Source: Limnochordales bacterium (GTDB lineage Bacteria; Bacillota; Limnochordia; Limnochordales; DUMU01). Taken from it: a DNA stretch of 64,000 bases. The notes beneath the pieces are model-generated. The model had not been told where the DNA came from, did not search any database, and saw only the letters and a program-made list of their open reading frames with translations. How positions within the stretch are numbered: the stretch's first letter is position 1; the number at the start of each line of letters is the position of its first letter. Below, piece after piece: positions 2,467 through 18,667 of this stretch. Position numbers and translations under genes: made by a program. The stretch is from positions 201,557 to 265,556 of the forward strand of contig JADBKP010000001.1 of the NCBI GenBank assembly GCA_014896315.1. The letters run 5' to 3'.

Positions 2467-2502
2467 GGCTTGCTTCCCTGCCTCGCGACGCGAGTCGCCT
2501 CA

Positions 2503-3777
2503 TTAGCCGTGCATTGACATGGATCGCAATATAGCTAGAATCCGCTCACTGGCGTGGCCGTCGCCGAAGGGGTTGTTGGCGCCCCCCGCATTGGCCATCT
2601 CCTCGTACCGGCGCCGATCGGTCAGCAGCGCGAGGGCTTCTTCCCGGATGCGGACCCGATCTGTGCCAACCAGGCGGGCAGTGCCCGCCTCCACTGCTTC
2701 TTGGCGCTCGGTCTCCTCCCGCAGAACCAGCACCGGTTTGCGCAGGGCAGGCGCTTCTTCCTGCACACCGCCCGAGTCAGACAGGACAAGCGTCGCTGCC
2801 TGCAACGCATGAACGAAATCCCTGTAGTCCAGGGGGTCCGTCAACTTCACTCGCGGGTGCGCTCCGAGGATGCGATTGGCAGCCTCTCGCACCACCGGAT
2901 TGCGGTGGCAAGGAAAGAGCACCCACACGTCGGGCAAAGCCTCAAGAATATCAAGGATGGCGTGGTAGACCTGTTCCAGAGGCTTGCCCCAGTTCTCCCG
3001 GCGATGGGTGGTGACGAGCAGCATCCGGGAAGCTCCCCCCGAGCCTAGGCCTGGGGCTAGGCCCGGGCCTGGGCCTGGGCCTGGGGCTAGGCCTGAGCCT
3101 GAACCTGGGCCTGAGCCTGAGCCTGAGCCCGCTGCCGATGACGCCGCCTTTGCGGACTTCGCGGTCAGTTCAGACGCGGCGGCAGCCTCAACGCCAGCTG
3201 AACTTGCCTCGCCGTGCAGCGCCAGGACCGCATAAAGCGCATCGATGGCAGTGTTACCAGTTACGTGAACTGTCTCCGCGGGAACTCCCTCCGCCAGGAG
3301 ATTGGCAGCGGCCCTCTTCGTGGGGGCAAAATGAACTGCCGCAAGCCGCGTGATGAGCCGGCGGTTGGCCTCTTCCGGAAAGGGAGAAGCGATGGAGCGA
3401 GTACGCAATCCGGCCTCCACATGGGCCACCGGGACGTGAGCGTAAAAGCCGGCCAGAGCCCCCGCAAAAGCCGTGGTCGTATCACCCTGCACGATTACCC
3501 AGTCCGGCTTTTCCTTAGCAAGCACCGGCTCCAAACCCAGCAACACACGGGACGTCAGGCTGCAGAGGCTCTGCTGAGGCCGCATTACGTTCAGGTCATA
3601 GTCGGGACGTATGTCAAAAAGGTTCAAAGCCTGGTCCAGCATCTCGCGGTGCTGTGCCGTGGCCACTACGACAGGCTCAAAGTCGCTGCTCTTCTTCATT
3701 GCGATGATTACTGGCGCGAGCTTGATCGCCTCAGGTCGAGTGCCGACAACAATCAGGCAGCGGAGCGTGTTACTCAT
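2503..3777 (-). CDS. UDP-N-acetylglucosamine 2-epimerase paralog (WecB/MnaA family) with a Gly/Ser/Pro-rich inter-domain insertion
   Basis: 424-aa ORF. 'LIVVGTRPEAIKLAPV', 'HVEAGLRT' and 'DSGGVQEEAP' are 2-epimerase signatures. About 60 extra low-complexity residues ('SAAGSGSGSGPGSGSGLAPGPGPGPGLAPGLGSGG') sit between the two Rossmann halves, compared with the 362-aa copy at 26668..27756. Confidence 0.9.
   Translation of the reverse strand: MSNTLRCLIVVGTRPEAIKLAPVIIAMKKSSDFEPVVVATAQHREMLDQALNLFDIRPDYDLNVMRPQQSLCSLTSRVLLGLEPVLAKEKPDWVIVQGDTTTAFAGALAGFYAHVPVAHVEAGLRTRSIASPFPEEANRRLITRLAAVHFAPTKRAAANLLAEGVPAETVHVTGNTAIDALYAVLALHGEASSAGVEAAAASELTAKSAKAASSAAGSGSGSGPGSGSGLAPGPGPGPGLAPGLGSGGASRMLLVTTHRRENWGKPLEQVYHAILDILEALPDVWVLFPCHRNPVVREAANRILGAHPRVKLTDPLDYRDFVHALQAATLVLSDSGGVQEEAPALRKPVLVLREETERQEAVEAGTARLVGTDRVRIREEALALLTDRRRYEEMANAGGANNPFGDGHASERILAILRSMSMHG
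3041..3130. repeat. Imperfect hexanucleotide microsatellite (GCCTGG/GCCTGA/GCCTAG units) encoding the epimerase linker
   Basis: Read directly: gagcctaggcctggggctaggcccgggcctgggcctgggcctggggctaggcctgagcctgaacctgggcctgagcctgagcctgagccc. Confidence 0.9.
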
Positions 3778-4054
3778 CGTACCACCGATCTCTTGCTGTG
3801 AACTGCTGAAGTGCTACAACTGCCAGGCCAGCGCATGCTCCTGCAGTCTGGATATCAACCGGTCTGGACTTACCGCTCCACTCCGGGCAAATACGTGTGC
3901 GCAACGCCGTCGGCTAAGCACACCAGAACAGGGTCTTGCGCTCTTCCCGACCGATCCAAGAATGGGGAGCACTGTCCCGTCAATGGTGCCCTGGACCGAT
4001 TCACGCCGGGTCAGCTCGGCGACGTCGACAATAAGCACCGCTTACCGCTCCCTC

Positions 4055-5122
4055 TCATCCAAGGTCATCGAATAATGGAATCTGTTCGATCTCCGCCGGT
4101 TGTGTATGTTCCGCCGAGAATTCCATCATCGCTTGCAGGAGAGACTGGTGCTGTCCTTCATCGGCTACCTTTATTAGCCAAACCTGGTCTTGCCCTACAT
4201 ATGTCAGCGCTTCTGGAATTATCTGGTTTGCCTCTTGGGCCAGATTCCTGATAAAGTGCTTGCATAGCCGCCTCATATGCACGGCGGAATCGCGGTTCTC
4301 CCAGAATTCATACACGCCAAGTGTTGCATCTCTTAAAAGGTCCTCACAGCTAATTCGAATCTCGCAGGGCGGGGTTGAACGGCCAACCACTCTGATGAGT
4401 GACGCAAGTATCCTCTCCAGTAGTATCCTTCGGCACAGGTTCCTCTCAGCCGGCGACTGCTCTACATCCGGGTCATACGGAATGAAGTAAAGGGGTCGCG
4501 GATCTGTATCAGGCCAAACGCGGAGAAAGAAATGTCCCCCCGGTTCAAAACCAAAGAAGCTCGCACTGCGAGAATCGAAGACGAGAGCGATGCGCTCCTG
4601 CTCGACCTTCAGACCGAGGGTGGCCCAATCTCCCGCGGGACATCCGATGCTCCGCAGTTCTGCCTGTAACGCACCAAGCGTTTCAGTGAAAAGGCTTCTT
4701 TGAGGTTCCGGCAGCACCGTAACCAGCATCGAACCCTTCACTCGTTCACGGGCCTCTCCTAAAACCTCTGCTAGCCTTGGGCCGGATATCGCCAAGAGAG
4801 TGTGCATCTGGTCGCGGTTCGATGACTCCGAACCGAAAGAAGACTTCTTGCACTCAGTAATTGCAAACTTTCCCTGGCCCTCCAGCACCACGTCGGGTCT
4901 AACCCGCTCCTTGAAAGCAACACCTGCACGTATCATGGCAAGCCTCAAGTCCGGAGGAGCGGCCAGTAACGGGGCGATAGCGTAGACGGAAAAGCCTTGT
5001 TCGTAAAGAAGCGGTCGTATACCGAGTGCCTGAAAGTCTCGCGGCAGTGGTTGCACGAGCCAAAGCATCGCGTTGAGTTGGAATATCGGATCCTCCACCA
5101 GCTCAGCCAAGTCCTGCCTCAT
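4055..5122 (-). CDS. Hypothetical protein (355 aa), possible PD-(D/E)xK nuclease fold
   Basis: The track gives 4055..5269, but the first 49 codons overlap the upstream gene. The ATG at 5122 follows GAGGAGGTG and overlaps the upstream stop by 20 nt. 'RVRPDVVLEGQGKFAITECKKSSFG' resembles a D..ExK restriction-endonuclease-like core. Nothing else is recognisable. Confidence 0.65.
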   Translation of the reverse strand: MRQDLAELVEDPIFQLNAMLWLVQPLPRDFQALGIRPLLYEQGFSVYAIAPLLAAPPDLRLAMIRAGVAFKERVRPDVVLEGQGKFAITECKKSSFGSESSNRDQMHTLLAISGPRLAEVLGEARERVKGSMLVTVLPEPQRSLFTETLGALQAELRSIGCPAGDWATLGLKVEQERIALVFDSRSASFFGFEPGGHFFLRVWPDTDPRPLYFIPYDPDVEQSPAERNLCRRILLERILASLIRVVGRSTPPCEIRISCEDLLRDATLGVYEFWENRDSAVHMRRLCKHFIRNLAQEANQIIPEALTYVGQDQVWLIKVADEGQHQSLLQAMMEFSAEHTQPAEIEQIPLFDDLG

Positions 5123-6407
5123 ATGGCACCTCCTCGACCGAGCGCTGCACAAGGTCGATGTAAGGCTCGTTTCCGATGTATGCCGTCGCCCCGGGGTCGA
5201 GATATCGCTGGACGTTTCGTACAAGACGATGCACTGTGTTTCCGCAAGTGCCGCTCGGTACGATGGCAATACATCCTGTTGTAGTCAGCTCCAGCCACAG
5301 AGGCTGCCACAAATGGCGGTCGAGTCCGTAGACCTGCACCTTTTCCGGTCCCAGATGGATTGGGTGGCCCCAAAGCCTGAAACGGTTCGGTTTGCTTCCA
5401 AAGGTCGTCGAGATCCAGCGGGAAAACACCCGCCGATCAAGCGGTTCGCGGAATCGAATTACAACGGGTGCGCCTACAATCCTCTGTAACTGCCCTGGTG
5501 CATTGATCGATTCGCGGACCTCGTACCACGTCTGCTCTTCGGTCTTTCGCAACAACTTTTCATATACCTGAGAAACGTAAATGACGTGAGCTCGGTGGTC
5601 CCTGAAACTGCTACTCTTGTTTGTTACATGCCCGTCATCATAAAAATCGTGCCCTCCACGGCCTACAGGGGAGGGAAACCTGAGCTGACTGATCGCATAG
5701 AGCGGTGAATAGAGCGCTTGCAATTTAGAGAGACGCTCCTTGATTACCCCGACCCGATCCACTAGCCGGAACGTTGCGGAGCGTCGTTCTCTAATGGATT
5801 CAAGATCTTCTTCGTCCTCCCCCTCGTGGTCTGACTCGAACTCGTCTTCGTCGGGCTCCTCTAATAGGTCATCCTCAGCTGGTAGACCATCAGGAGTCCG
5901 TTGTCCGAACGTTCCCGGGTCAAACACGCTCTCAAACGCGCATCCTATGCGAGTGAATCGGGCAGGGTGGGTCGTGGTCTGGACTACGTTCCACAAAACA
6001 TGGAAAGTGAGCCCGCTCAGCCAAACATGGTCCAGTTCGGGTGTTGAAAGCACCAGCGCCCGAGCCCATTTTTCAAGGGAGTCCGCCTCCATCGGGCTGT
6101 ACAGTGCCACCACTCGAGATCCGACGGGTTCCAAGAAACCTATGTCACCCTCCTTAGGGTCGGTAACTCGAAACAGAGACTCTTCCAACCGCGTAACACC
6201 CAGACCGCGCCGCTCGAGCAGCAATTTTATCGTCTCGGACGTGACCGGTCTGGATCCGTCGAGTACCTCGAGCAGCCACGTCTTCACCACAGGGCGCTTA
6301 AGTTTACTACGCTCTCGAAGTTCCTCCATTCGCTCGATGGAGTACCCGTCAAAAAAGCGAACCATGTCTCGCTGAGTTGCAATCTTTGTCAGGTCGAGGG
6401 CTGTCAA
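5103..6407 (-). CDS. Hypothetical protein (434 aa) with acidic linker
   Basis: Long ORF translationally coupled to the downstream gene. Contains a D/E-rich linker 'PAEDDLLEEPDEDEFESDHEGEDEEDLES'. 'FRDHRAHV' fits an Rx4H (HEPN-like) pattern, but this is weak evidence. I cannot assign a family. Confidence 0.6.
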   Translation of the reverse strand: MTALDLTKIATQRDMVRFFDGYSIERMEELRERSKLKRPVVKTWLLEVLDGSRPVTSETIKLLLERRGLGVTRLEESLFRVTDPKEGDIGFLEPVGSRVVALYSPMEADSLEKWARALVLSTPELDHVWLSGLTFHVLWNVVQTTTHPARFTRIGCAFESVFDPGTFGQRTPDGLPAEDDLLEEPDEDEFESDHEGEDEEDLESIRERRSATFRLVDRVGVIKERLSKLQALYSPLYAISQLRFPSPVGRGGHDFYDDGHVTNKSSSFRDHRAHVIYVSQVYEKLLRKTEEQTWYEVRESINAPGQLQRIVGAPVVIRFREPLDRRVFSRWISTTFGSKPNRFRLWGHPIHLGPEKVQVYGLDRHLWQPLWLELTTTGCIAIVPSGTCGNTVHRLVRNVQRYLDPGATAYIGNEPYIDLVQRSVEEVPYEAGLG

Positions 6408-6479
6408 GGGCAGACCCCCTCCCTTCTCGCCCGAACAGGGCGTTACCCCACCAGACCGGGCATGCTTTGGATTCCTCTA

Positions 6480-7065
6480 GAACACCGCCGGCCCTTCGGA
6501 ACTCGTTCGACCATAGTGTAACCCCCCGGGCCTCTCGGCTGCCATAAATTGCGACATTGGTTCCATGGAGAGCCACACCTTACTCGGGGACTTTGTGAGA
6601 TCATTTCTGGTCATATGATACTCGAGCAGTGTAACGCTATCATAACTGCCCCTTCTCCCGACTGAGCTTTGCTTCTCCAGGTAGGCCAGGAAAGCTCCGA
6701 GGTTCAGATTCAGCGGTGAACTCAGGGTTGTGGAAGTTGCCGACATCTGCCTCCCGTTCCTTCGGCGCGATATGTTTGGAACACTCGGCCGGCATCTCCA
6801 AGTATCTCTCGTGGCGGATAAGCCCAAGACCACGGACTCGCCGGGTGACGACCCGCACACTAACCCGCAACTGGCTCACCCAGCGCAGCCACCCACCTGC
6901 CCATGTCGGGCCTGTGTAGATGGGGCTGGCTTCTCCCGCAAGCCAGACACCGGCTATTTCGGGCTTGACGTCCACGGTTTAGGCAAGACCCTCTTGCCCC
7001 CGCTGTACACGGCGCAGTGCCCAATCGAGCGTTTCGGGGCGGATGCGCACTTCAAGGGCAGGCAT
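6480..7065 (-). pseudogene. Decayed ImmA/IrrE-HTH-like gene (remnant of a paralog of 16392..17540)
   Basis: The reverse-strand ATG at 7065 gives 'MPALEVRIRPETLDWALRRVQ', matching 'MPTLEVPINPETLAWALRRAR' of the intact gene, then a stop. Other frames retain 'SQLRVSVRV' (~'QRLRVSFGQ'), 'GNFHNPEFTAE' (~'GNFDHN..FTNAV') and 'LNLNLGAFLAYLEKQSS' (~'LNISLGAFVAYLEKRSS'). The HEXXH core is missing. Confidence 0.7.
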
Positions 7066-7482
7066 AGCGTTGACACCTCGGGCAAGCAAGAAAGCTCAGA
7101 AATCCGAGTCTAACTCTAGAACGATTCTTCTTGACTGACCCTCGGATCACTTCGCGCCCCGAACCTCAACAGGCACCGGAAAACGGAGCCCCACGAAGAC
7201 TCCCATGATCTACCCGCCAGGAAACCGTTCAGCCGCGGCGGCTGGCCTCTCACGTCAGTGCTCCAGGACCCCACGGGCGTCCCACAAGCTTTTGGGGCAG
7301 CAGCGTGACCTCGTTCGCGCTGCCCCTACATGCCTCCATGCCAGTAGCCCACTACCGGCTGACGGCAAACCTGAGCGCTCTTGCCAGTGCAGCCTCGCGT
7401 ACGATAAGGAAAGGCCTCCGCCGCTCTCGTTAGAAGTTTCGGCTTTACGGAAGTGGCTACACGCGCTATCCCGAGAGACTCC

Positions 7483-8238
7483 TCAAACAGCCACTTCGGA
7501 GCGCAACTTGACCTCAAGAGCTCCTCTTACCCAGCCATGCCCTGTTGACACCTTACCTCCTATTGAGCAGATGGATTTTAGCGGTTCCACTACGTATTTG
7601 TCGATTAATCGGTCGACGTGCCGTTCCTCGTGTGAGAGCTCCCGCAGCCACGAATCCGTGTTCGGCTCCAGGTGCTCACGTTCCCGGCCCAACGTCCATT
7701 TCCGCTGCTGGTCCTCTATGAGAATCCGCAGCACACCCCTGAACGTCGTCCCGGGAGGCATGACCTCAACGTTTCGGTTAAACCCGCGGTGAACGGCACT
7801 CGTGGCGCGGTCACGAGCCGCGGCATACGCAGGCTCGGGGTCCTTATCTGCCTCGAGGTAAGGTACCATGACGAAGCCCGGAAGACTCTGACATCCCAGG
7901 AAGTAGCAGGCAGGACATATTGGTCCTTTGCCATACTCGCAGGCACCACCCCTATAGACGCCTGCCCGGACTAACGTATGCTCATCAGCGCTTAACCGAC
8001 TGAACGGAAACGGAATGCACGGTCTGAAAACCGGATTACGTGCAGCTTGCTGAATGAGCAAACGCTCTAGTTGAGACCGCAACGCACCTTTTACCGATGT
8101 ACCAGGAATCACGGCCCTACCACCGATTCTTGCCACCGGACTATGGAACTCTGACATCGGATCCGGGGGGCCCCCCACGAAGAGGGGCTGATCGATAGTA
8201 AGCCATAGGTCGTACTCCCTGAACACCCTATCAGGCAT
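7483..8238 (-). CDS. cas7: Cas7-type RAMP protein (Csm3/Cmr4/Csf2-like backbone subunit)
   Basis: The track ORF is 7483..8349. The ATG at 8238 has GGAGG 9 nt upstream and overlaps the upstream stop (ATGCCTGA). 'RAVIPGTSVKGALRSQLE', 'ICPACYFLGC', 'ARDRATSAVHRGFNRNVEVMPPGTTFRG' and the glycine-rich 'IGGKVSTGHGW' follow the order of the canonical Cas7 RAMP motifs. Confidence 0.8.
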   Translation of the reverse strand: MPDRVFREYDLWLTIDQPLFVGGPPDPMSEFHSPVARIGGRAVIPGTSVKGALRSQLERLLIQQAARNPVFRPCIPFPFSRLSADEHTLVRAGVYRGGACEYGKGPICPACYFLGCQSLPGFVMVPYLEADKDPEPAYAAARDRATSAVHRGFNRNVEVMPPGTTFRGVLRILIEDQQRKWTLGREREHLEPNTDSWLRELSHEERHVDRLIDKYVVEPLKSICSIGGKVSTGHGWVRGALEVKLRSEVAV

Positions 8239-8536
8239 GATCCGAAACCTCCTCGCTGTAGTAATTCCGAATAGCTTCGAGCTTGGCCAGCACGTACCTA
8301 CCCTCAGCCCTCGTCGGGAGCTTCGAGACCAGATGCACAACCTGTACAAGTATCGTCAGGTCCTGAAGCCTTTCCTCATATAACTCATCTTCCCGCTTGC
8401 CCACCACAAATGCCTCTGCAGCTTCCGGTCCGTGAATCTCGTACAGCCGGGCTAAGTCACTAAGCAAGCCCCGGACCGCGAGTCCGCCCTTCTCGTCCGA
8501 GTTCAACTTTCTTACAAGGTCAATCAGGTCAGGCAT
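8231..8536 (-). CDS. Small helical protein in the position of a Cas11 small subunit
   Basis: The track ORF is 8231..8593. The ATG at 8536 has GGAAGG 5 nt upstream and lies 26 nt after the upstream stop. The protein is 101 aa with Leu/Glu/Arg-rich, helix-like composition. The assignment rests on size and position only, not on a sequence motif. Confidence 0.45.
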   Translation of the reverse strand: MPDLIDLVRKLNSDEKGGLAVRGLLSDLARLYEIHGPEAAEAFVVGKREDELYEERLQDLTILVQVVHLVSKLPTRAEGRYVLAKLEAIRNYYSEEVSDHA

Positions 8537-8562
8537 GACTACCTTCCATGCAGACTCCACCC

Positions 8563-9204
8563 CTAGATCCCTCCTTCGGGATGAACCAAACACCGGGGAC
8601 CGCGCACGACGCTGCCTTCAAACAGTGCGCGCACGTAAACACCTCCGACTCTATTTTCGTCCGGTTCAAATAGGTACCCCCAGACAGGCATAGCTACCTC
8701 AACTATTCCAAACTGTTCCAAAACATCTCCCCGTTCGGGCAACCGCACAAGCAGCGAACCCCAGCAACATTCGGCTTGATCCTCGGTCACCGGGCCAACA
8801 CGTTCCATGGTGCAGTATCCCAACCCCTTGCTTCGCAGGGCACCAACTTGAAGCGAGAAATGCTGAGGAAGGCAGGCTGCCCTGGGACCCGTGACAAAGG
8901 CTCGTGCTTTAACGTCCACCAAAAATGCATACTCAAGCGGCAAATAGGCTGAGCCCAACGCCCTATTACGTGTAGAAGCAGCCTGCCAGTACGGACCGGA
9001 GTATTCCTCAATTATTGCCACACCAGCAACTCCCTGTCCGAACTCTGCTGTCAGCGCGCCAGTAAGCTGCGAATACGGGATGGACCGTTCCAGGGTCCCG
9101 CGGAAGGTTCCCTTTTTTAGCCTCTCACCCAGGGAAAGCGTTTGAGCGTTAAGGATGTATTCTATAAGAATCGCCACCACCCCCCCGCACGCGGCTGCTT
9201 TCAC
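8563..9204 (-). CDS. Cas5-type RAMP protein (Csm4/Cmr3/Csf3-like), start uncertain
   Basis: The GTG at 9204 overlaps the upstream gene by 56 nt; GTGs at 9180 and 9177 are alternatives. 'RSIPYSQLTGALTAEFG' resembles the Cas5 N-terminal strand. A glycine-rich loop is present at 'LRSKGLGYC'. Confidence 0.55.
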   Translation of the reverse strand: MKAAACGGVVAILIEYILNAQTLSLGERLKKGTFRGTLERSIPYSQLTGALTAEFGQGVAGVAIIEEYSGPYWQAASTRNRALGSAYLPLEYAFLVDVKARAFVTGPRAACLPQHFSLQVGALRSKGLGYCTMERVGPVTEDQAECCWGSLLVRLPERGDVLEQFGIVEVAMPVWGYLFEPDENRVGGVYVRALFEGSVVRGPRCLVHPEGGI

Positions 9205-11377
9205 CGCTAAAAGTCAATTCGAGTAACGAAAGAACCTGGACAGGTCCGAAAAGTCCTTTTCTGATACCGTCGTCGAAGCGGTTGACCACCTCTTGCGCAG
9301 TTGCTCGGATAGGACCCGGCTCCTTGCTGTCTGCCTTGACAACCGCCCAAGCAAGATCAGGCAAGCCTGTCCGGCGCTCCACCTCAGCCAACTCGTGCAG
9401 GTAGCGCCGTACTCGTGGAGGCCGATCATCCATCCATTTGCCCATTCCGGTGATCAACGCTCGCAACCCAGGGAGGTCGGTTTCGAATCTAAAGGACCTG
9501 ATACCTCGTACAGCAACCGCATGCGAAGGGTCGGAAACGTGCCGCCAGTCCACGTAGAACGGCCATTTGGCAGGGCCGTAGCTGACTCCCAGTCTGACTG
9601 CCTTCGCTGCTTCCGCTAAGAGGCCAGACCGCCAATGGTGCTCAAGTAGGACCGGAAAGTGCTGCTTCATCAGGTCAACGTAGCTCCTGAGCAACTGCAG
9701 GAGCTGCCGCTTTTCTGCGAGTTCGGCAATCCAGACGCCTTCGGCGAGTTCCACTACATGGCTGAAGATTCGCCGTACGGCTTCACCGAGCGCCGTAATC
9801 GTCCGCGCGAACTCGTCGTGCATGTCCCGAAGAATTCCCAGCGGCCGGAATTGTGACAGCACCGGTATGAGTTTCTCGTTCTGCTTAGGGGCCATCCCTA
9901 CGAAGAGCACTCCATCAATCACCCTTTGCCCGTACAGAGCTTCGACTAGAAGCTCTGCCCGGCGTGGATCCAGAGAAGCACAGATCCAGCACGCCAGGCT
10001 GTCGCGCTCCTCCCACTGCCTCAGATCAGCCTGCCGGAAACCACGATCTCGCAGTTCCCAGCAGCGGTTGCACAGGTTCTCGGTTACCGTCGCCACCCTC
10101 TGCGGGATTCCACGCCGCACCTGGCACACATCACAGAGCGGGGGTTCAATCTCGACTGTGGAGTCAACCTCAGGCGGGTAGAACGAACTATACGAGTCAG
10201 GTGTAGTAGTCCGCGGTACGGGCGCATCAGACTCGAGTTCCCGGAGGGCCCTCAGCTTCTTATCCAGTCGCCCGACTTCTGGACCGACCTCACGCTTCCG
10301 CCCAGGGGGAGTCCCAGGATGGTCAAGCAACGCCTTAATGTGATCTCGACGCTTTTGTAGCTTTGCTGACGCCGCTCGGATCAGCTCGCGGTGGACATCC
10401 CCCGAACGGGGAGACCGCCACAGCTGCAGGGAGCTAGGCGGAGCTTCACGTGTGTGTGCTTCGGCGTAAAACCCGCGATCTGTCAGAGGTTTCAGAATGC
10501 CTCGCAGGCTCAGCGCCGAGCTGGGCAAGAAGAGATACAGGGTCGTTCCTGTGCGAAATAGCAGGTACGGCGACTCAAAGTCGTCGAGTGCATCACGCAA
10601 CTCTCGGAGGACTGCTACATCCATAGCCCGCGCAAAGGACTGATGGAATTTGACAGTCACACGCGCTATGCGTAACTTCCATCTCTTGGAGGCGTCCTCG
10701 TGGTTTCGCACCTCCACGCCGTCAAGGGCCAAGGAGAGACCTTCGTGGCTGGTCCGTACCTCAACATGTTTCTCCAGTGCCCGGTAGTATTGGCCCGTGA
10801 GTGTGCAGTGCGCCCACAAGGAGGTTACCTGGTTCGGCCAGGCTTCGTCTTCGCCCCGAGCACGGAAGTTGTCTGCTAGACTCTCTAACACTGCGCTAGC
10901 CGAACTCTTCTCCCACAGCGTGAACAACTCTTCTAAGTCTGCAGGCGTCTTGATCGGCTCGGGATCTTCATGCGCAGGTTCATTCCTCCAAACCGCAAAC
11001 ACACTCTTGCTCCAAAGATTTCTCCACTCGTTCGCCTGGGGACCCTCGTAAACTGCTCTGACAGTTGTCGCGGCAAGGTTGTCGGCTAAGCACACTAGGA
11101 ATAGGGCCTTACGCTCTTCTGGACCGATCCAATGGTGAGGAGCAGGCCGGGCAAGATCCCTCACCCAGTCACTCCAATCGGCCAGTTTCATGTGATATAT
11201 GACTGATGCCCAAGTTAAATCTCGCTCGACTATCTCTGGGATCAGAATTCCAGGCATAAACTTTCCTGAGCGGTAAAAACTATGTTTTTGGCCGCGTAGA
11301 CAGTCTGCCGCCAGCTTCCCGAGGTCATGTAACTCGGGGATGATCATGCTTGTCACCTCGCTATTCTCTACAGCCAC
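9149..11377 (-). CDS. cas10: Cas10-like large subunit with N-terminal HD domain and degenerate cyclase palm
   Basis: 742 aa; the GTG at 11377 follows GGGGAG. HD motif 'IIPELHDLGKLA' plus 'LVCLADNLAAT'. 'VTSLWAHCTLTGQYYRAL' resembles the Cas10 palm-1 entry. Cys pairs 'CDVCQ' and 'CNRCW' are present. 'LACWICASLDPRRAELL' resembles the first palm-2 Asp strand. Where GGDD is expected I read 'VELAEGVWIAE'. The only GGD is 'GGGGDS', 7 residues from the C-terminus. Confidence 0.75.
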   Translation of the reverse strand: MAVENSEVTSMIIPELHDLGKLAADCLRGQKHSFYRSGKFMPGILIPEIVERDLTWASVIYHMKLADWSDWVRDLARPAPHHWIGPEERKALFLVCLADNLAATTVRAVYEGPQANEWRNLWSKSVFAVWRNEPAHEDPEPIKTPADLEELFTLWEKSSASAVLESLADNFRARGEDEAWPNQVTSLWAHCTLTGQYYRALEKHVEVRTSHEGLSLALDGVEVRNHEDASKRWKLRIARVTVKFHQSFARAMDVAVLRELRDALDDFESPYLLFRTGTTLYLFLPSSALSLRGILKPLTDRGFYAEAHTREAPPSSLQLWRSPRSGDVHRELIRAASAKLQKRRDHIKALLDHPGTPPGRKREVGPEVGRLDKKLRALRELESDAPVPRTTTPDSYSSFYPPEVDSTVEIEPPLCDVCQVRRGIPQRVATVTENLCNRCWELRDRGFRQADLRQWEERDSLACWICASLDPRRAELLVEALYGQRVIDGVLFVGMAPKQNEKLIPVLSQFRPLGILRDMHDEFARTITALGEAVRRIFSHVVELAEGVWIAELAEKRQLLQLLRSYVDLMKQHFPVLLEHHWRSGLLAEAAKAVRLGVSYGPAKWPFYVDWRHVSDPSHAVAVRGIRSFRFETDLPGLRALITGMGKWMDDRPPRVRRYLHELAEVERRTGLPDLAWAVVKADSKEPGPIRATAQEVVNRFDDGIRKGLFGPVQVLSLLELTFSGESSRVRGGGGDSYRIHP

Positions 11378-11399
11378 TGCTGCTCCCCGGTTCCATTGC

Positions 11400-11430
11400 G
11401 TATATATGCACCGTTTTTAAAAGTTTAAAT
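11400..11430 (-). promoter_or_regulatory. Candidate sigma-A-type promoter of the cas10-like operon
   Basis: The minus strand reads TTTAAA-17 nt-TATATA in the only AT-rich patch between the IS3 end and the GTG. The match to consensus is weak. Confidence 0.25.
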
Positions 11431-11503
11431 GCTTTTGCCCAGTAGGAACTTGACGACAAGTGCCTGGCTAGCCCCCTAACCAGAGTGGACAGGTAGCCTT
11501 TGA

Positions 11504-11839
11504 TTGGGTAGAGTCCTGTTGGGAGGATTGACAGTGACTCGGACCCGATACGAACCAGACTTCAAGCTGCGGGTAGTCCGCGAAGCGTTGGAGACACGCA
11601 ATGCATCCCTGGTCGCACGACGCCACAATCTCGCTCCTAACCTGGTAGCGCGTTGGGTTCGGCAGTATGGCGCTGATGGGGAGGCCGCGTTTTCTGCCAA
11701 GCGTCGCCGTTCGCAAGTGGAGACCCCCGAGTTGAGGGACATCCAGCGGGAAAACGAGCAGCTCAAGAAGCTACTGGGCGAGAAAGACCTCGAGATCGCC
11801 ATTCTCCGTGACCTTCTAAAAAAAACAGCCCGACCCTGA
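11504..11839 (+). CDS. IS3-family transposase OrfA (HTH / leucine-zipper part)
   Basis: 'YEPDFKLRVVREALE', 'LVARWVRQY' and the coiled-coil tail 'ENEQLKKLLGEKDLEIAILRDLLKK' are typical of IS3 OrfA. Confidence 0.85.
   Translation: MGRVLLGGLTVTRTRYEPDFKLRVVREALETRNASLVARRHNLAPNLVARWVRQYGADGEAAFSAKRRRSQVETPELRDIQRENEQLKKLLGEKDLEIAILRDLLKKTARP
11818..11825 (+). promoter_or_regulatory. Programmed -1 ribosomal frameshift site (A8 run) linking orfA to orfB
   Basis: The A8 run lies at the end of orfA. orfA is in phase 2 and orfB in phase 1, which is a -1 relationship, as in IS3-family OrfAB fusions. Confidence 0.7.
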
Positions 11840-11853
11840 GGGATCGGCTGGAG

Positions 11854-12186
11854 GTGGCGGAGAAATGGATTCAAAGGGGGTACCCCATCGCCGTGGTTCT
11901 TCGCATAGTGGGGGTCGCCCGGTCGACGTATTATGCTCATCGTCATCCCAAACGGCCCAAGAGCCCACGAAAAGGGGGAAGGCCGAAGCCAGGGTATTCG
12001 TGGACCACGGCAGGAAAGCGAGTACCCGATGAGCAAATCCAAGAGTGGCTATGCGAACTCATCGCTGGGGAAGAGGCCTGCTATGGCTACCGCAAGCTGA
12101 CTGTGGTGCTCAGGCGCCGGTACGGGCTGATAATCAATCACAAGAAGGTCTATCGGCTTTGCCGCGAACTGCGGTTGCTGCGGCCG
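11854..12186 (+). pseudogene. IS3-family transposase OrfB, 5' portion (interrupted by IS21 insertion)
   Basis: 'HKKVYRLCRELRLLRP' is followed directly by IS21 terminal sequence. The reading frame resumes at 14417. Confidence 0.8.
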
Positions 12187-12292
12187 TGTCAACGCCGGCT
12201 TGAAATTGACCCACTACGCGCCGGTTTGGAATTGACCCACCCCCGAGAAAGCAGTCCTACAGTGCGTAGCACCAAGGGACGCCGGACACCGG

Positions 12293-13087
12293 TTACTGTT
12301 TCTCCGCTCTCACCCCCTCTGTGGATGGTGGCGCTATGCCGAAGATGCCGGCCCGCTTCTTTTCCCGTAGCCGGTAGCTTTCACCCCGGATGTTGAGCAC
12401 GTGGCTGTGGTGAAGCAACCGATCGAGAATGGCAGTGGCAATGACCGGATCCCCCAGCACCTCGCCCCACTCACCGAAGCCTTTGTTCGACGTGAGGATG
12501 ATGCTGCCGCGCTCGTACCGCGCGGAGATGAGCGCAAACAGGGCGGTTGCAGCCGACCGATCGTAAGGCCAGACACCGAATTCATCGATGATAAGCACCT
12601 TAGGCGCCAGATAAACCCGCATGCGGCGGTCAAGACGGTGCTCTTCCTGGGCCCGGCGCAGATCTTCGAGCAGGTCGTATGCCCGAGCGAAGTAGACCGC
12701 GTGACCGGCCTCGATCGCCTTGATACCCAAAGCGACCGCCAGATGGGTCTTGCCCACTCCGGGTGGGCCCAGCAGGAGGATGTTGGCGCTCTCGGCCACA
12801 AACGCCAGGGAGGCCAGCTCGCGCACCTGACGCTCATCGATGGAAGGCTGGAAGCTGAAGTCGAACTGTTCCAATGTCCGGTGAAAGGGCAGGTGCGCCA
12901 GGCGAGTTCTGGTACGCAAGTAGCGCTCCCGGCGTGCAGGTGCTTCGATCTCCATAAGGTCAGCAAGGAAGTCAGCGTAAGGCAGTTCCTTTTGGGCCGC
13001 TACTTCCAGACGGCTTTCCAGTACGGACGCTGCTTGTGCCAGCCCCAGTTGCTCCAAGTACGAGCGGGCCTTCTCCAGCGCAATCAT
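12293..13087 (-). CDS. istB: IS21-family helper ATPase IstB
   Basis: 264 aa with Walker A 'LLLGPPGVGKTHLAVALG' and 'LLIIDEFG'. It overlaps the istA end, as is typical. Confidence 0.9.
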   Translation of the reverse strand: MIALEKARSYLEQLGLAQAASVLESRLEVAAQKELPYADFLADLMEIEAPARRERYLRTRTRLAHLPFHRTLEQFDFSFQPSIDERQVRELASLAFVAESANILLLGPPGVGKTHLAVALGIKAIEAGHAVYFARAYDLLEDLRRAQEEHRLDRRMRVYLAPKVLIIDEFGVWPYDRSAATALFALISARYERGSIILTSNKGFGEWGEVLGDPVIATAILDRLLHHSHVLNIRGESYRLREKKRAGIFGIAPPSTEGVRAEKQ

Positions 13088-14374
13088 TCGTTTCTCACCG
13101 TCCCAATCAGCGACTCATAAACCGCCAGGGGACGCTGCGCCACCTCGACCGAGCTCACCTGGAAAGCCACCGGTTCCCGCCGGCGATTGTCGCCGGCTGT
13201 CGGCACCTCAGCCCATTGAGCGGGATGGGTGAATCGCTGCCCGGGTCGGGTAGCCCTGGGGTACACGGCCAACAGGCGGTCGCCTGTCCACAACTGGATG
13301 ATCTCAGCCCCCGGTTGCACCTCGACTCTTTCCCCGGGCTTCCACGGCCAGGGTACACCGTACCAGGACCCGTCCCACTGTACGTATCCATCTCGTCCCA
13401 CTGCCCGACTCTCCCGCAGGAAAGGTTGCAGGCGTTCCCGACCGGGTAAGGGCTGCAAATGATGCCGCTCAACCGCCAGCCTGTCTATCGGTCGCTCACG
13501 GGTGGTACCGTGGATACGGACGTTTGCCACTGTATCGCTCCAGAGCAGTGCTTGCCGGTTCAAGTCGTCGAGGTCCGTGAAACGAATACCCGGCCAGAAG
13601 TTTCCCTTGACGTACTTGATTCCGCTTTCCACACGTCCCTTGGTCTGCGGTCTGTAAGGATGGCAGAGCTGTACGTTGAATCCCATCCGCAGCGAGAAGT
13701 CCAGAAAGCGAGGGTTCCAGACCGGCCGACCGGCATCGTCTGTTTCCAGCGCCACCAGTTTCGTTCGGTCGTAGAGGCACTTCTCCGGTACGCCGCCAAT
13801 GGCAGCGCATGAAGGTAGGAGTATCAGCCCGGTTAACAAACTCCACGTAGATAGCTCTTGACCAGCTCAGTACCATGGTGAAGTACCACTTTCGCTACAC
13901 CGTGCCGTGTGGGAACACCACCGCACAACTGCCGAAATCGACCTGAGCTTACTCACCCGGGCGGGTTTCGAAACGAACGGTCACTTTGGGCTGGTGTTGA
14001 TGCCGCAATGGTTGGACGAAGTCCTTGAGTATCGTATAGCCGCCCGTATATCCGCAGGCGCGGAGTTCCCGCAGGAGAACCTTGCAGTTCGTCACTCCCT
14101 CCGCCCATCGTTGCATGATAAACTCCTTGTAGGGATCCAGCTTCGAGGGTCTCTTCTGTCGAGGAGCTGGCCTGGGCACTTCTGGGGCCCTCAAATACTT
14201 GCGAACCGTGTTACGCGAGATTCCCAAGGTCCTGGCGATGGCTCGGATGGAGTACCCCTCGCCTTTGAATTCATAGAGCTTTTTCACTTTCCCGCCTCCC
14301 AGCACGACAGTTTCGACACCTCCGACTCGTGGTGGAATCGGCGGTGTCTTTCGCTGGGGGCGGGTCATTTTCAT
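13084..14374 (-). pseudogene. istA: IS21-family transposase IstA, inactivated
   Basis: The N-terminal HTH ORF (13949..14374) ends at a TAA inside the conserved 'PGE*AQVDFG'. A second in-frame TAG follows ('PHGTV*'). A frameshift near 13800 joins to the C-terminal ORF 13084..13839 ('GGVPEKCLYDRTKLV', 'YRPQTKGRVE'). Confidence 0.8.
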
Positions 14375-14416
14375 TCCGGCGCTACTGGGTCAGTTTACAT
14401 CCGGCGCTGACAGCCG

Positions 14417-15004
14417 CAGCGTCCCAAGAAACCCCACCATCCCCGGCGGCTGGCTCGTAACCGGCTGGTTACTGGGCCTAACCAGCTATGGGAAGTCGAC
14501 GTCAAATACGGGTACATAGCAGGGGAGGAGCGGTTCTTCTTCGTGATGCCTATCCTGGACGTGTACGACCGCTCGGTGGTGGAGTTTCACATTGGCCTGA
14601 CTTGTCAGGCGGAAGAGGCGGCCAACGCGCTCAGAGAAGCAGTGCGCCGACGCAAACCGGAGTGGGAGGACACCAAACCAGTGGTCCGAACCGACAAAGG
14701 GCCACAATTCATTAGCCAGCTGTTTGAGGAGACGTGTGAGCAATTAGGGCTGGAACACGAACGGATACCGAATGCAACCCCCAACAAGAACGCCCACATC
14801 GAAGCGTTCAACGGGATCATGGAGGAGGAATGCCTAGCCCGCAACGAATTCCATACCTTTGCGGAAGCATATCTGACAGTGATCGACTTCATCGACTTCT
14901 ACAACGAGCGTAGGTTACACTCCGCCCTGGGGTATCGTAGCCCTCAGGAGTTCCGGGAAGCATACCGGCAGAATCATACGCGACTCGCCCCGGTCAAGGC
15001 ATAG
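14417..15004 (+). pseudogene. IS3-family transposase OrfB, 3' (DDE/rve) portion
   Basis: My translation from 14417 reads 'QRPKKPHHPRRLARNRLVTGPNQLWEVDVKYGYIAGEERFFFVMPILDVYDRSVVEF', then 'RTDKGPQFIS' and 'NAHIEAFNGIMEEE'. It is in frame with 11854..12186 once the IS21 is removed. Confidence 0.8.
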
Positions 15005-15039: not shown

Positions 15040-15180
15040 GTGCTGCGTATGTTCCGTTGAGAATCGCATCATGACTTGCAGGACAGATTGATGCTGTCGG
15101 GCATCACCACCCTTATTATTAGCCAAACCTGTTCCTCCCGCATATATGTCAGCGCATCTGGCATTGTTGACGTTCACCTG
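15040..15180 (-). pseudogene. 3'-terminal fragment of a second copy of the 355-aa gene (4055..5122)
   Basis: By-eye DNA alignment of 15040-15178 with 4098-4230. Shared blocks are GTATGTTCCG, CATCAT, CTTGCAGGA, TTATTAGCCAAACCTG and ATATGTCAGCGC. At the protein level, 'HQSVLQVMMRFSTEHTQ' matches 'HQSLLQAMMEFSAEHTQ'. Confidence 0.7.
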
Positions 15181-15218: not shown

Positions 15219-15439
15219 ATCAACGACCAAAGGTGATAAGCTACCCCGGGAAATACACGGGGTGCGGTGTGTAGGTGAGCGGTTTCCCACGGGAAAACCC
15301 AACCGCCTGCTCGCCAAGCCCCTTTATCGTTGCTTTGCTCATCCGGTTATCACCAGGTCAGCAAATGGCATGTCTTGGTTCGTTATGCAAAAACCTCCTG
15401 TAGTTTAGCCTACACGGGTTTCAGGGTCAAGTTGCTTCC

Positions 15440-15746
15440 CCCTAGCCCCGTATCTGGCGGGAGAACGAGCAGCTCAAGAAGCTTCTGGACGAGAAGACCT
15501 CGAGATCGCTATTCTCCGTCACCTGTGGAGACAAACAACCGCGCACTGAGGAATCCTCTGGGGGTCGCGGAGAAATGGATTCGAAGGAGGTACCCGATCG
15601 CCCTGGTTCTTCGCACGGTGGGGGTCACCCGGTCGAAGCACTAGGCTTACAGTAAGCCAAAGCGTCGTCGTCATGCCTATCCTGGACGTGTACGACCGTT
15701 CGGTGATCGAGTTCCACATTGGGCTGAGTGTCAGCGCGAGGAGGCG
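15440..15746 (+). mobile_element. Internally deleted remnant of a second IS3-family copy
   Basis: The remnant retains three stretches. CTAGCCCC is like the left IR. GAGAACGAGCAGCTCAAGAAGCT..GACCTCGAGATCGC..GGAGAAATGGATTC..GGTTCTTCGCA aligns with 11748-11930. ATGCCTATCCTGGACGTGTACGACCG..GAGTTCCACATTGG aligns with 14543-14595. The A8 slippery run and most of orfB are missing. Confidence 0.7.
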
Positions 15747-15841: not shown

Positions 15842-16408
15842 TCACGCGGTCCTCCCAGCCAACTCATCAAAGGCCTGGTACAGTGATATACACCGTACGC
15901 CGAACGCCCAAGCGACAAAAGGTATGCGCACCGGGCCAACGATCTTTTTCTTGACCCTATCGTATCCGGGAATGGTGTGCTTTTCCAACGTGACCAGTGT
16001 GGCCTTGTGGGTTTTGGCCAGAGCAACGAACATCGGATCTTCTCCTCGCAAGAAGGTGTCATCTTGCTGAACCTCGAAGTTATTCAACACAAACTGGCAT
16101 ATATCAGCTACGTAAGAAAAAGTGTTCGGAGTAGGACTAAGGATTTGGATTAGCCCTTGCCTCTCAAGGGCTTGAAGCAACTGGCTTACCCGGTCCTTCT
16201 TTACTTTGAGCTCTCTGATAAGTCCATCGGATCCTACCAGCTGACCACTCCTGAAGCCTTGAATGAACCACTCTTCAAGCCACTTGCTGGCCTGAGCAGC
16301 GCTCCTGCCGATGGAAGGGTACCGCGAGCGCAGTCCCAGCGCTAAGCTGGGTAGTACTCCGCCGTAAAAAGAAGTGATAAGAACGTTTGAGTCAATAAGA
16401 TACTTCAC
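15842..16408 (-). CDS. PIN-like protein (DUF4411-like), putative toxin/nuclease partner of the ImmA-like gene
   Basis: The track ORF is 15842..16435. The GTG at 16408 follows GGAGAAG by 7 nt and overlaps the upstream stop by 17 nt. The N-terminus 'VKYLIDSNVLI' is the PIN-type first acidic strand. Confidence 0.65.
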   Translation of the reverse strand: MKYLIDSNVLITSFYGGVLPSLALGLRSRYPSIGRSAAQASKWLEEWFIQGFRSGQLVGSDGLIRELKVKKDRVSQLLQALERQGLIQILSPTPNTFSYVADICQFVLNNFEVQQDDTFLRGEDPMFVALAKTHKATLVTLEKHTIPGYDRVKKKIVGPVRIPFVAWAFGVRCISLYQAFDELAGRTA

Positions 16409-17540
16409 TGCTACGCTTCTCCAAGTAAGCAACAAAAGCTCCCAGGCTTATGTTCAACAAAGATGCTGCCTCTTTAAAGGTGAGTTCGCCCTCAATAGTA
16501 GCGGCGACTACCGCGTTTGTGAAAGTAGGGCTATTCCAAGCTGCGAGGTTGTGATCGAAATTGCCACTGGAACTTTTGCGTTTTTGCTTTCCAAGACCTT
16601 TGTAGTACTCTCCCACCAGGTTCTGGTATTCCTCGCGGGAAATGAGCCCAAGGTCATGGGCTCGACGCGCAGCAACCCATACACTCACCCAGAACCGCCT
16701 GGCCACGTTTTGTGCGGCTTCCCTCGGGTCTGAGCTCCACATGCGGCGAAGCTGTTGCTCCGGGACTAAGAGCTCCGCGGCAACTCGGTCGCAAAACTTT
16801 TCCAACTCGGGGTCGGGTTCGAGCTCGTGATTGTCGTCCAAAGCGCTTTGTCCAACCCAGATATGGGCAAGCTCATGGGCAAAGGTGAAGTTGCGCCGGG
16901 CCTGATAATCCCTCATGTTGACCAGAATGATCGGGGCCACCGGGTCGGCAATGGCGAAACCCGAGAACTCGGTCGGATCCAGGGGGAGATGGGTGTTGCT
17001 CCCCACAATGCCCCTACGAAGGACTAGAATCCCTATCTCTTCGGCTCGCTTGCTCAGCTTGCGCAGGAAGTCATCCCAGTCTTCAGCCTCCACGCGGATT
17101 GCTTGCACAGGGATGTAGCTACGGATTGCGTCCGCCACCTCTTCCGGTGCGGCTTCCTGCCAGTCGACACTTCCGACAAAGGCAAGTGGACGATTCCCCC
17201 GGTACTCCCGCCACCAGTCTCGCTTTCGCAGGGCGTCGTAGATGGTTTCGGTCAGTTCGAGGCTGGGCTCTTTCGGAGCATCAGCCCTCCTGCGCAGGTC
17301 CGGAATGGGAATCTCCACCCGGGCTGGTGGAGGAAGAAGAAGCTGGCCGAAGGAGACCCTGAGCCTTTGCGCGATCTTCTGGGCCTGCCGGTACGTCGGG
17401 CGCGCCTTGCCTCCGATCCAGGCATGAACTCTCTCTACGCTAGCCCCCGCGGCTCTAGCCAAGTCGTCAGGGTCCAACCTTGCGCGCCGCAGTGCCCACG
17501 CCAGGGTCTCAGGATTGATAGGCACTTCCAGGGTGGGCAT
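16392..17540 (-). CDS. HTH + ImmA/IrrE-family zinc metallopeptidase
   Basis: The track ORF runs to 17594. The ATG at 17540 follows GGGAGGTG. The N-terminal XRE-like HTH region includes 'LARAAGASVERVHAWIGG'. The peptidase motif is 'FAHELAHIW' (HEXXH). Confidence 0.8.
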   Translation of the reverse strand: MPTLEVPINPETLAWALRRARLDPDDLARAAGASVERVHAWIGGKARPTYRQAQKIAQRLRVSFGQLLLPPPARVEIPIPDLRRRADAPKEPSLELTETIYDALRKRDWWREYRGNRPLAFVGSVDWQEAAPEEVADAIRSYIPVQAIRVEAEDWDDFLRKLSKRAEEIGILVLRRGIVGSNTHLPLDPTEFSGFAIADPVAPIILVNMRDYQARRNFTFAHELAHIWVGQSALDDNHELEPDPELEKFCDRVAAELLVPEQQLRRMWSSDPREAAQNVARRFWVSVWVAARRAHDLGLISREEYQNLVGEYYKGLGKQKRKSSSGNFDHNLAAWNSPTFTNAVVAATIEGELTFKEAASLLNISLGAFVAYLEKRSSEVSY

Positions 17541-17793
17541 GGCCGTCACACCTCCCACAACCAAGTTCGGCAATACACCGTCAGCTGGAGACAAGTGTGA
17601 GCACTCTTGCCACTGCAGACGCGCGACGACCGGAGGAAAATCTTCACGTCAGTGATGTTGATTACCTTCCGGCTTGCCATTCGTATGCCGACTCTATACT
17701 TCCATTATGCAGCATAAGGACTGTGGTAAACTGGTGCCTTGCAACTTGAGGCATCTGTGTCTGGTGGGGGCTCTCGGAAGATCCCGGAAAATG

Positions 17794-18465
17794 CTACTCG
17801 TAATGGTCAGCGCTGCTAGGTGCAGCTTCGGCACGGGCGACGACCTCGTCCAGGGCCGGCTCTTCGCGGCCCACGGCCAGCAGCAGCGCCCGGACCTTGA
17901 CCGGCTGGGCCGAGGCCGCCACGCCCGCCAACAGCCTCAGCCCATGCTCCAGCCACCCCACACCCACGCCCCCGCCCGCCCGCACCCGGAGCTTGACAAT
18001 GTCCTTGTGCGGGGTGGGTTCGACCGTTTCGCCCTCGGTGTGCAGTTCCTCGAAAAGCCGTTCACCGGGGCGGATGCCGGTGAACTCGATCTTGATGTCC
18101 ACGTCCGGTTCAAGGCCGCTGAGGCGGATCATCTCCCGGGCCAGGTCCAGAATGCGGATCGGCTGGCCCATCCGCAGGACGTAGATCTCGCCACCTTCCC
18201 CCATCGCCCCCGCCTGCAACACCAGCTAAACCGCCTCCGGAATGGTCATGAAATACCGCTTCATCTCCGGGTGCGTGACGGTGACCGGCCCGCCGGCGGC
18301 AATCTGCCGCTTGAAAATCGGTATGACACTGCCCCGGCTGCCGAGGACATTGCCAAAGCGCACGGCGACAAACCGGGTACGGACCGGACGTCGGTCTACT
18401 CCGTCACCGCCACCGCAGACTCCGTCAGCCCCAACGGACCTATCCAAGCCGGCGACATGCGCCAA
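17794..18465 (-). pseudogene. CapD-like dehydratase fragment (C-terminal half only, in-frame stop)
   Basis: Two ORFs are colinear with the C-terminal half of 22344..23486. '[45 protein letters not shown]' is identical in both. They are split by a TAG at 18223-18225 where the intact copy has CAG. The NAD-binding N-terminal half is absent. Confidence 0.85.
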
Positions 18466-18667
18466 GCGGGCCTGCTTTACGTGTTCCTCGGAAAAAGGGC
18501 AGCTCCACCCCGACCTTTACATTACTCGTGAACCGATCGCCGGCTAGCACGTCAACATCACTATCGTCCGCGAATAGCCCCGCCCGCTCCCTGCGTGCTA
18601 GCATGCCGAGTGTACCGTTCCCCAACCGCGTCGCACTCCCGGGCACTGACCTACGAAGTGCGCTGCC

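Follow-up and report, generated by a model that had tools for sequence, protein, structure and literature searches.

A subtype III-F CRISPR-Cas effector module without an adjacent array or cas6 in a Limnochordales bacterium

The operon and its subtype

A 64-kb stretch of a Limnochordales bacterium metagenome-assembled genome (contig JADBKP010000001.1), referred to here at its full length as the window, carries four co-directional open reading frames (ORFs) on the minus strand at positions 7483-11377, arranged as cas10-cas5-cas11-cas7. Together they constitute a genuine effector module of CRISPR-Cas subtype III-F, in which every testable defining feature of that subtype was found. The operon is a new example of a rare subtype that has been catalogued since 2020 and not a new system. 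The genes, the conserved leader upstream of them, and the gene-less stretch downstream are as follows:

11348-11397, minus strand: conserved 5′ operon leader, delimited by blastn of the closest relative (L009) against the window
9149-11347, minus strand: cas10, the III-F large subunit, 732 aa from an ATG (742 aa from an upstream GTG)
8563-9177, minus strand: cas5, the III-F Csm4-like subunit, 204 aa, also called on an identical Logan contig
8231-8560, minus strand: cas11, the III-F small subunit, 109 aa from a GTG (a start at the ATG at 8536 would give 101 aa)
7483-8238, minus strand: cas7, the sole III-F backbone subunit, 251 aa
6408-7482, no strand: gene-less stretch of 1.07 kb right downstream of cas7, the place of the array or cas6 in relatives

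Start codons were chosen by combining ribosome-binding sites read by eye, N-terminal conservation in homologues, and the independent gene calls available from Logan contig L001 (8.2 kb), which is 100% identical to the window over positions 3277-11492. The sequence GAGGTGA lies five bases before the cas10 ATG at 11347, and GGAGGG lies upstream of the cas11 GTG at 8560. With these starts, cas10 and cas5 overlap by 29 nt, cas5 and cas11 are separated by a 2-nt spacer, and cas11 and cas7 overlap by 8 nt. A preliminary description of this DNA, made from the sequence alone, had placed four tightly coupled minus-strand genes at these coordinates, and the ORFs and junctions agree with it; the overlaps that it reported at three of the junctions are reduced to two. 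The lengths that it gave for Cas10 and for the third product are those of the GTG-started and the ATG-started forms, respectively, and for each gene the other start is the likelier one, which makes the third product a Cas11f of 109 aa. Homology to L009 ends at 11397, 50 bp before the ATG of cas10, and gives way to AT-rich, promoter-like sequence and then to an IS3-family insertion sequence (IS) element. In the NCBI annotation, the large subunit appears as a 580-aa hypothetical protein (IMX00_00885) from which the HD domain has been cut off; exact-protein look-ups found neither this version nor the 742-aa form on record.

All four proteins matched III-F profiles in PADLOC. Cas10 was assigned to Cas10a/Cas10f (E = 1.6e-44) and Cas5 to Cas5_IIIf (9e-41). 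The match of Cas11 to Cas11f was weak (4.1e-5), and the syntenic genes in relatives gave 3.4e-8 and 1.7e-18. Cas7 matched Cas7_IIIf at 1.7e-41, followed by Csm3 (1.8e-12) and type IV Cas7 (2.7e-6), with the Cas7_IIIg profile at 2.4e-4. Related loci share both the gene order and the PADLOC III-F matches. Among the two minimal layouts that the preliminary description had considered, III-F is thereby upheld, with a large subunit of the Cas10/Csm1 fold, and IV-C is not, given the gap between the type IV and III-F scores of Cas7. That description had also made its reading depend on the retrieval of Cas10, Cas7, and Cas5 by profile searches, and PADLOC did retrieve these families. Pfam and NCBIfam found no match for Cas10, Cas5, or Cas11 and recognized Cas7 only as a generic RAMP (Pfam RAMPs, 4.2e-12), so these general libraries, used alone, would have led to a wrong rejection of the finding.

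Cas7 is the only RAMP of its kind here, as had been proposed: further RAMPs of the Csm5, Cmr1, or Cmr6 type were absent among the scanned window ORFs. Neither PADLOC nor Pfam matched a CARF or SAVED ancillary effector dependent on cyclic oligoadenylate (cOA) in the flanking or window-wide ORFs. The Cas10 family is rare, since an exhaustive profile search of 1.84 billion representative proteins returned merely 252 clusters at 50% identity, and Cas10 had no tblastn match in collections of plasmids and phages.

Active sites of Cas10 and Cas7

The structure of Cas10 was modeled with AlphaFold2 from a 127-sequence alignment, with a predicted local distance difference test score (pLDDT) of 92.5 and a predicted template modeling score (pTM) of 0.92; an earlier model from 5 sequences had a pLDDT of 51 and was unusable. 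In a Foldseek search with the final model, the best 16 PDB matches were all III-A Csm1, over the full length (best E = 3.7e-10), and III-D and III-B Cas10 ranked after them. Pumilio, a PDB match obtained with the single sequence and with a 5-sequence profile, was discarded as spurious; the 127-sequence profile found Csm1. The protein comprises an N-terminal HD domain, a degenerate palm 1, a four-Cys Zn ribbon, palm 2, and a C-terminal helical domain.

The HD site of Cas10 looks intact, as judged from conservation across an alignment of 129 family members. Its five residues are kept in 82-99% of the sequences (H7 in 123, D8 in 122, H52 in 106, D89 in 124, and H180 in 128), and the family profile aligns the HD region to 'LLHDIGK ... 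IRYHMAN ... IADNIASGVDR ... SLADHSRL' of Streptococcus thermophilus Csm1, an active DNase. Where most family members read 'HH', the Cas10 of the window reads 'YHM', as does S. thermophilus Csm1. The published HD pattern for III-A and III-F, 'HD.HH.D.H', is matched (PMC12700095). The Zn ribbon is likewise conserved, with C405, C408, and C429 present in 129/129 sequences and C426 in 121/129. Both features, the HD motif and the paired-Cys ribbon, had been recognized in the preliminary description.

The cyclase palm, in turn, is predicted to be dead. In Thermus thermophilus Csm1 (TtCsm1), the GGDD hairpin reads 'VYSGGDDLFLLG' and is followed by a helix and an 'LTLSGG' strand; in TtCmr2, it reads 'VYSGGDDVLALL', followed by a helix and a 'SLSVG' strand (both reference sequences were taken from pTT27). 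The equivalent hairpin of the window's Cas10, residues 531-543, reads 'VVELAEGVWIAEL', with 'VRLGVSYGP' as the later strand. Palm 2 of the model shows the same strand-turn-strand-helix-strand order (strands 531-535 and 538-543, helix 547-563, and strand 584-592), so that 'LAEG' occupies the place of GGDD and the 'GVSYG' strand is the counterpart of the later 'LSGG' strand. This mapping uses motif spacing and predicted secondary structure instead of a residue-level structural superposition, because the HD region was all that hhalign aligned between the Cas10 family and TtCsm1. The family consensus at the hairpin is mostly 'xILD[D/E]F'. No family member retains the two Gly, and the window sequence has lost the Asp pair too; the sole GGD in this Cas10 lies in the disordered C-terminal tail. 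Because the hairpin reads 'LAEG', the view that the palm lacks GGDD and that the cyclase is dead holds at the level of sequence and model. The preliminary description, which took this view, had placed the GGDD position at the 'GVSYGPAK' strand, and that placement shifts to the hairpin at 531-543. It had named a functional GGDD in a palm alignment as grounds for giving up the claim; the comparison with TtCsm1 and TtCmr2 gave none.

Cas7 was read in the preliminary description as carrying the full Csm3/Cmr4 motif set, with the catalytic Asp in 'PPDP'. The alignments do not bear this out. The column of the Csm3/Cmr4 catalytic Asp is occupied by His32, within 'EFHSPV'. In hhalign comparisons, 'EFHSPVAR' falls over 'DLDNPVVR' of TtCsm3 (D34; E = 1.3e-5) and 'FHSPVAR' over 'IDLPIAR' of TtCmr4 (D26), D34 and D26 being the residues that we take to be catalytic. 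The family profile places 'vhnPV' over 'TDNPV' of Csm3 (4qts_C), and a 121-sequence MAFFT alignment also puts His32 in the catalytic column. The Asp of 'PPDP', six residues upstream, pairs with the noncatalytic D26 of TtCsm3.

Across the 120 best III-F-type Cas7 matches, the catalytic column holds Asp in 79, His in 25, Glu in 6, and Gly in 6. An Asp or Glu two residues upstream is found in 11/25 of the His forms versus 3/79 of the Asp forms, counts that are uncorrected for relatedness. His-type Cas7 also occurs in two relatives that keep cas6 (L008 and L005), so the variant is not linked to losing CRISPR parts. The Cas7 of the window is thus a minority His variant, which may have lost RNA cleavage or may use altered chemistry.

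Cas7 also contains a four-Cys insertion at residues 74-111, with invariant C74, C100, C108, and C111 ('CPACYxxG'). In alignments, the insertion matches the CPxC knuckle found in the Cas7 domains of III-D and III-E (Cas7-11/gRAMP), as well as a 200-aa PDB chain labeled only 'Cas7' (21bh_B and related entries).

Missing CRISPR parts and the proposed function

The whole window was scanned for the remaining parts of a CRISPR-Cas system. TRF, Rfam, and a direct-repeat search with spacings of up to 120 found no CRISPR array in the 64 kb, nor did a periodicity scan for at least 21 of 24 matches at offsets of 50-99. Profiles for Cas and other defense proteins, run on the other scanned ORFs over 1-64 kb of the window, detected no cas6, cas1, or further defense match, and tblastn of Cas6 proteins from two relatives against the window gave nothing better than an E value of ~1. 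The reading by eye that had found no array, cas1, or cas6 is confirmed by these repeat, Rfam, periodicity, and profile scans. In the gap between 6408 and 7482, there is no convincing gene, repeat, Rfam match, or cas6 remnant detectable by PADLOC and Cas6 profiles, and the periodicity of any degenerate repeats is no better than in shuffled sequence. An on-strand match to a Cas6 N terminus at 6868-6936 is weak (tblastn E = 4.6 window-wide, ~0.04 when rescaled to the gap alone); as a single weak tblastn/tblastx match, it was considered insufficient to identify a cas6 vestige and is taken as a hint only. The repeats of two relatives, L020 and L021, had no match in the window.

The related loci differ from the window in what follows cas7:

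L008 (Cas10 57% identical): cas6 right after cas7
L005: cas6 right after cas7
L012: cas6 after cas7, broken by an insertion
L020: array of 16 repeats (37 nt each) between cas7 and cas6
L002: reverse transcriptase (RT) gene and cas1 after cas7
L021: III-F locus in a degraded state, with fragments of cas6, a cas2 gene, and an array of 6 repeats

All of the relatives with readable flanks (6/6) therefore carry cas6, an array, or adaptation genes (RT-cas1) beside cas7. Since relatives keep the array or cas6 in this place, the comparison of loci indicates that the minimal layout of the window arose by secondary loss rather than as a design in its own right. The genes upstream of cas10 are different in every relative, so the unit consists of the four genes plus, where present, cas6 and the array.

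Two of these loci have features of their own. In L012 (3664-5146), cas6 is broken after ~60 codons by an insertion of ~950 bp with two small ORFs, and the 5′ end of cas6 is duplicated at the far side of the insertion. The Anaerolinea III-F locus L002 (4335-6276) has RT (7.8e-88) and cas1 (3.7e-96) straight after cas7; it departs from the general rule of III-F loci without adaptation genes, and its Cas7 retains the canonical Asp.

To estimate the selection acting on the operon, Nei-Gojobori ratios of nonsynonymous to synonymous substitution (dN/dS) were calculated against L009 (87.7% nucleotide identity). The values of 0.21 for cas10 and 0.14 for cas5, obtained against a relative of 85-93% identity, indicate purifying selection over most of the divergence from this relative. 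All four ORFs are intact and their motifs conserved, and the genes look functional by these measures.

The best explanation as a whole, and one that we hold to be reasonably probable, is that the operon is a III-F module that has secondarily lost its array and cas6 and that serves trans-guided DNA targeting by the HD nuclease, without cOA. The likely mechanism, by homology with III-A, would begin with assembly of the four proteins on CRISPR RNA (crRNA) whose array lies at another place in the genome and whose processing depends on a Cas6 provided in trans. The use of crRNA from elsewhere has been proposed generally for array-less type III loci, and orphan type III effector modules of this kind are described as common (PMC12669027, PMC8036902). 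The complex would then base-pair with a complementary invader transcript, and target pairing would activate the Cas10 HD nuclease to cut single-stranded DNA at the transcription bubble. No cOA signal would be produced, because the palm lacks GGDD. Because His replaces the catalytic Asp of Cas7, target-RNA cleavage as an off-switch is probably absent or altered, and HD activity would last until the target dissociates. We regard as tentative, and on balance rather unlikely, the proposition that an orphan III-F module under purifying selection combines a Cas7 that does not cleave RNA with HD-only DNA targeting guided by borrowed CRISPR guides or by non-CRISPR RNA, the latter being the less likely variant. 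If true, type III interference would have a natural variant that is 'always-on until release'.

Several points weigh against the proposed explanation. All six relatives keep CRISPR parts, and the window locus may accordingly be newly orphaned and nonfunctional. The source of crRNA for the operon was not identified within the window. The dN/dS values are averages over the whole divergence and are compatible with a recent relaxation of selection. A His at the Cas7 catalytic site might still allow RNA cleavage; of the 25 His forms among the best 120 matches, 11 have an acidic residue two positions upstream. Finally, the searchable literature mentions III-F only in classification and bioinformatic papers and holds no III-F experiments, in agreement with the preliminary description of the subtype as experimentally uncharacterized.

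The main rival explanation is that the operon is an orphaned, functionally dead remnant, whose effector genes are unused and have yet to accumulate disabling mutations. The 1.07 kb without genes where relatives have cas6 or an array, the abundance of IS3 and IS21 insertions and decayed gene copies in the surrounding island, and the visible degradation of another relative (L021) would all fit such a remnant. Against these stand the four intact ORFs with their conserved motifs, the dN/dS range of 0.14-0.21, and the reported commonness of orphan type III modules that draw on crRNA in trans, and we consider a dead remnant possible but improbable. Selection together with loss could also mean that the complex has been repurposed outside CRISPR immunity, as an RNA-guided regulator or with a non-CRISPR guide, with a Cas7 that only binds and an HD domain that is used differently. 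The array, cas6, the adaptation genes, and the canonical Cas7 catalytic Asp are all gone while the genes remain under purifying selection; yet the Rfam and periodicity scans found no candidate guide RNA gene near the operon, and the His variant is shared with the cas6-keeping L008 and L005, which leaves repurposing decidedly unlikely.

The preliminary description had further proposed that effector function must come from the HD domain or from neighboring genes. For the first part, the HD site looks intact. For the second, the candidates are two uncharacterized proteins encoded on the strand of cas7, ~1 kb downstream of it: one of 434 aa from the MJECL33 family (5103-6407) and a partner of 355 aa (4055-5122). 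This pair recurs with its 20-nt overlap and 50-60% identity in many phyla, without cas genes nearby (in Planctomycetes, Deltaproteobacteria, Blastocatellia, and Chloroflexus, it stands between housekeeping genes); it occurs in none of the III-F relatives, and the 1.07-kb gap separates it from cas7. A contribution of the pair to III-F function is therefore very improbable, and the distribution argues that the cassette is an independent uncharacterized module, not a III-F accessory. It looks mobile and is possibly defense related; PADLOC and a local copy of Pfam gave no match for it. A similarly small probability attaches to the operon being a IV-C or III-H system. IV-C loci too are minimal and encode a Cas10-like large subunit with an HD domain. 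III-H has been called a distant relative of III-F and is defined by a Cas11 in place of the Cas10 C-terminal domain (PMC12669027). IV-C, with its Csf2-type Cas7, Csf3-type Cas5, and no Cas11, was ruled out by the Cas7 scores (Cas7_IIIf far ahead of type IV Cas7) and by the separate Cas11f-type gene. III-H was ruled out by that same separate gene and by the C-terminal helical domain that Cas10 keeps, with helices 625-710 confidently placed in the model.

A compact, four-protein type III complex that is free of cOA and relies on HD alone would make a clean model of how target-RNA binding licenses the Cas10 DNase. The points specific to this locus are modest: its array and cas6 have been lost, His has taken the place of Asp in Cas7, and the palm is more degenerate than usual. 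The locus adds two facts: His stands at the Csm3/Cmr4 catalytic Asp column in a considerable minority of the Cas7 proteins of III-F, and a III-F module can be kept under purifying selection once its array and cas6 are lost. Neither fact alters the classification or raises a question of long standing, and experiments would more sensibly begin with relatives that have a fuller set of parts, e.g., L020, in which cas10-cas5-cas11-cas7 is accompanied by the 16-repeat array and cas6.

The surrounding island and comparison with known systems

The III-F module sits in an IS-rich island of ~15 kb between an intact and a decayed copy of wecB (UDP-GlcNAc 2-epimerase; 2486-3777 and 18654-19809), which are 85-90% identical. 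Pfam identified polysaccharide-synthesis genes, IS3 and IS21 transposases, and a pair formed by DUF4411 and HTH-M78 peptidase genes in the surroundings; such a pairing is typical of mobile elements and defense islands. The neighboring features, together with a riboswitch farther along the window, are as follows:

4055-6407, minus strand: MJECL33 cassette, consisting of the 434-aa protein (PF25924, a precomputed assignment) and the overlapping 355-aa partner
11504-15004: IS3-family element, with orfA at 11504-11839 (Pfam HTH_Tnp_1) and orfB at 11854-12396 and 14543-15004
12293-14374: istB (12293-13087) and istA as two ORFs (13084-13839 and 13949-14374), carried by an IS21-family insertion that splits the IS3 element
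15842-17594, minus strand: DUF4411 protein (197 aa) overlapping an HTH plus M78 peptidase protein (ImmA/IrrE-like, 400 aa)
48794-48877, minus strand: c-di-GMP-II riboswitch, with an Rfam score (55.1 bits, E = 1.9e-9) that exceeds the gathering threshold

The end of the IS3 element lies ~130 bp upstream of cas10, and a second, partial IS3 copy is present at ~15330-15730. A 50-nt repeat (84% identity) occurs at 4171-4220, within the 3′ portion of the gene for the 355-aa protein, and at 15116-15165, just past the IS3 integrase fragment; the repeated sequence may be an IS end. The intact wecB gene (2503-3777) contains a Gly/Ser/Pro-rich insertion, and from the decayed copy a 174-aa N-terminal ORF (19285-19809) survives. 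A fragment of a capD-like gene (22365-22664) is duplicated at 17821-18120.

Compared with known systems, the operon corresponds most directly to III-F as defined in the 2020 classification (PMC8036902), with a four-gene module of Cas10, Cas5, Cas11, and a single Cas7, an HD-bearing Cas10 with an inactivated cyclase, and a locus without cOA-dependent ancillary effectors, adaptation genes, or an array. In published accounts of III-F, the HD nuclease is generally present and the cyclase motifs and effectors are lacking (PMC11229360), the target is tabulated as 'DNA?' (PMC8036902), and most loci are array-less (PMC12669027); the HD-plus, cyclase-minus Cas10 architecture is thus already part of the published definition (PMC11229360, PMC8036902, PMC12669027). 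The window departs from the family in the His at the Cas7 catalytic Asp column, shared with ~21% of the best 120 matches, in a palm hairpin ('LAEG') that is more degenerate than the consensus, and, relative to the sampled members of its clade, in the missing adjacent cas6 and/or array.

With the III-A Csm systems of S. thermophilus, Staphylococcus epidermidis, and T. thermophilus, the operon shares the full-length Cas10/Csm1 fold, the HD motif pattern including 'YHM', and a Csm3-like Cas7 with the motif 'xPV.R...IPGSSxKGxxR'. In contrast to these systems, it has no GGDD and so would make no cOA, lacks Csm5 and Csm6, and encodes one Cas7 paralogue, in which His stands for the catalytic Asp and the four-Cys insertion resembles III-D and III-E Cas7 domains. 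The operon also resembles III-G and III-H as reductive type III systems with an inactivated cyclase, an apparently active HD domain, no adaptation module, a nonconserved Cas7 catalytic Asp, and predicted DNA targeting, and it resembles III-G in the predicted borrowing of crRNA in trans (PMC12669027). It is set apart from both by its III-F profile matches, its separate III-F-type cas11 gene, and a Cas10 that has kept its C-terminal domain.

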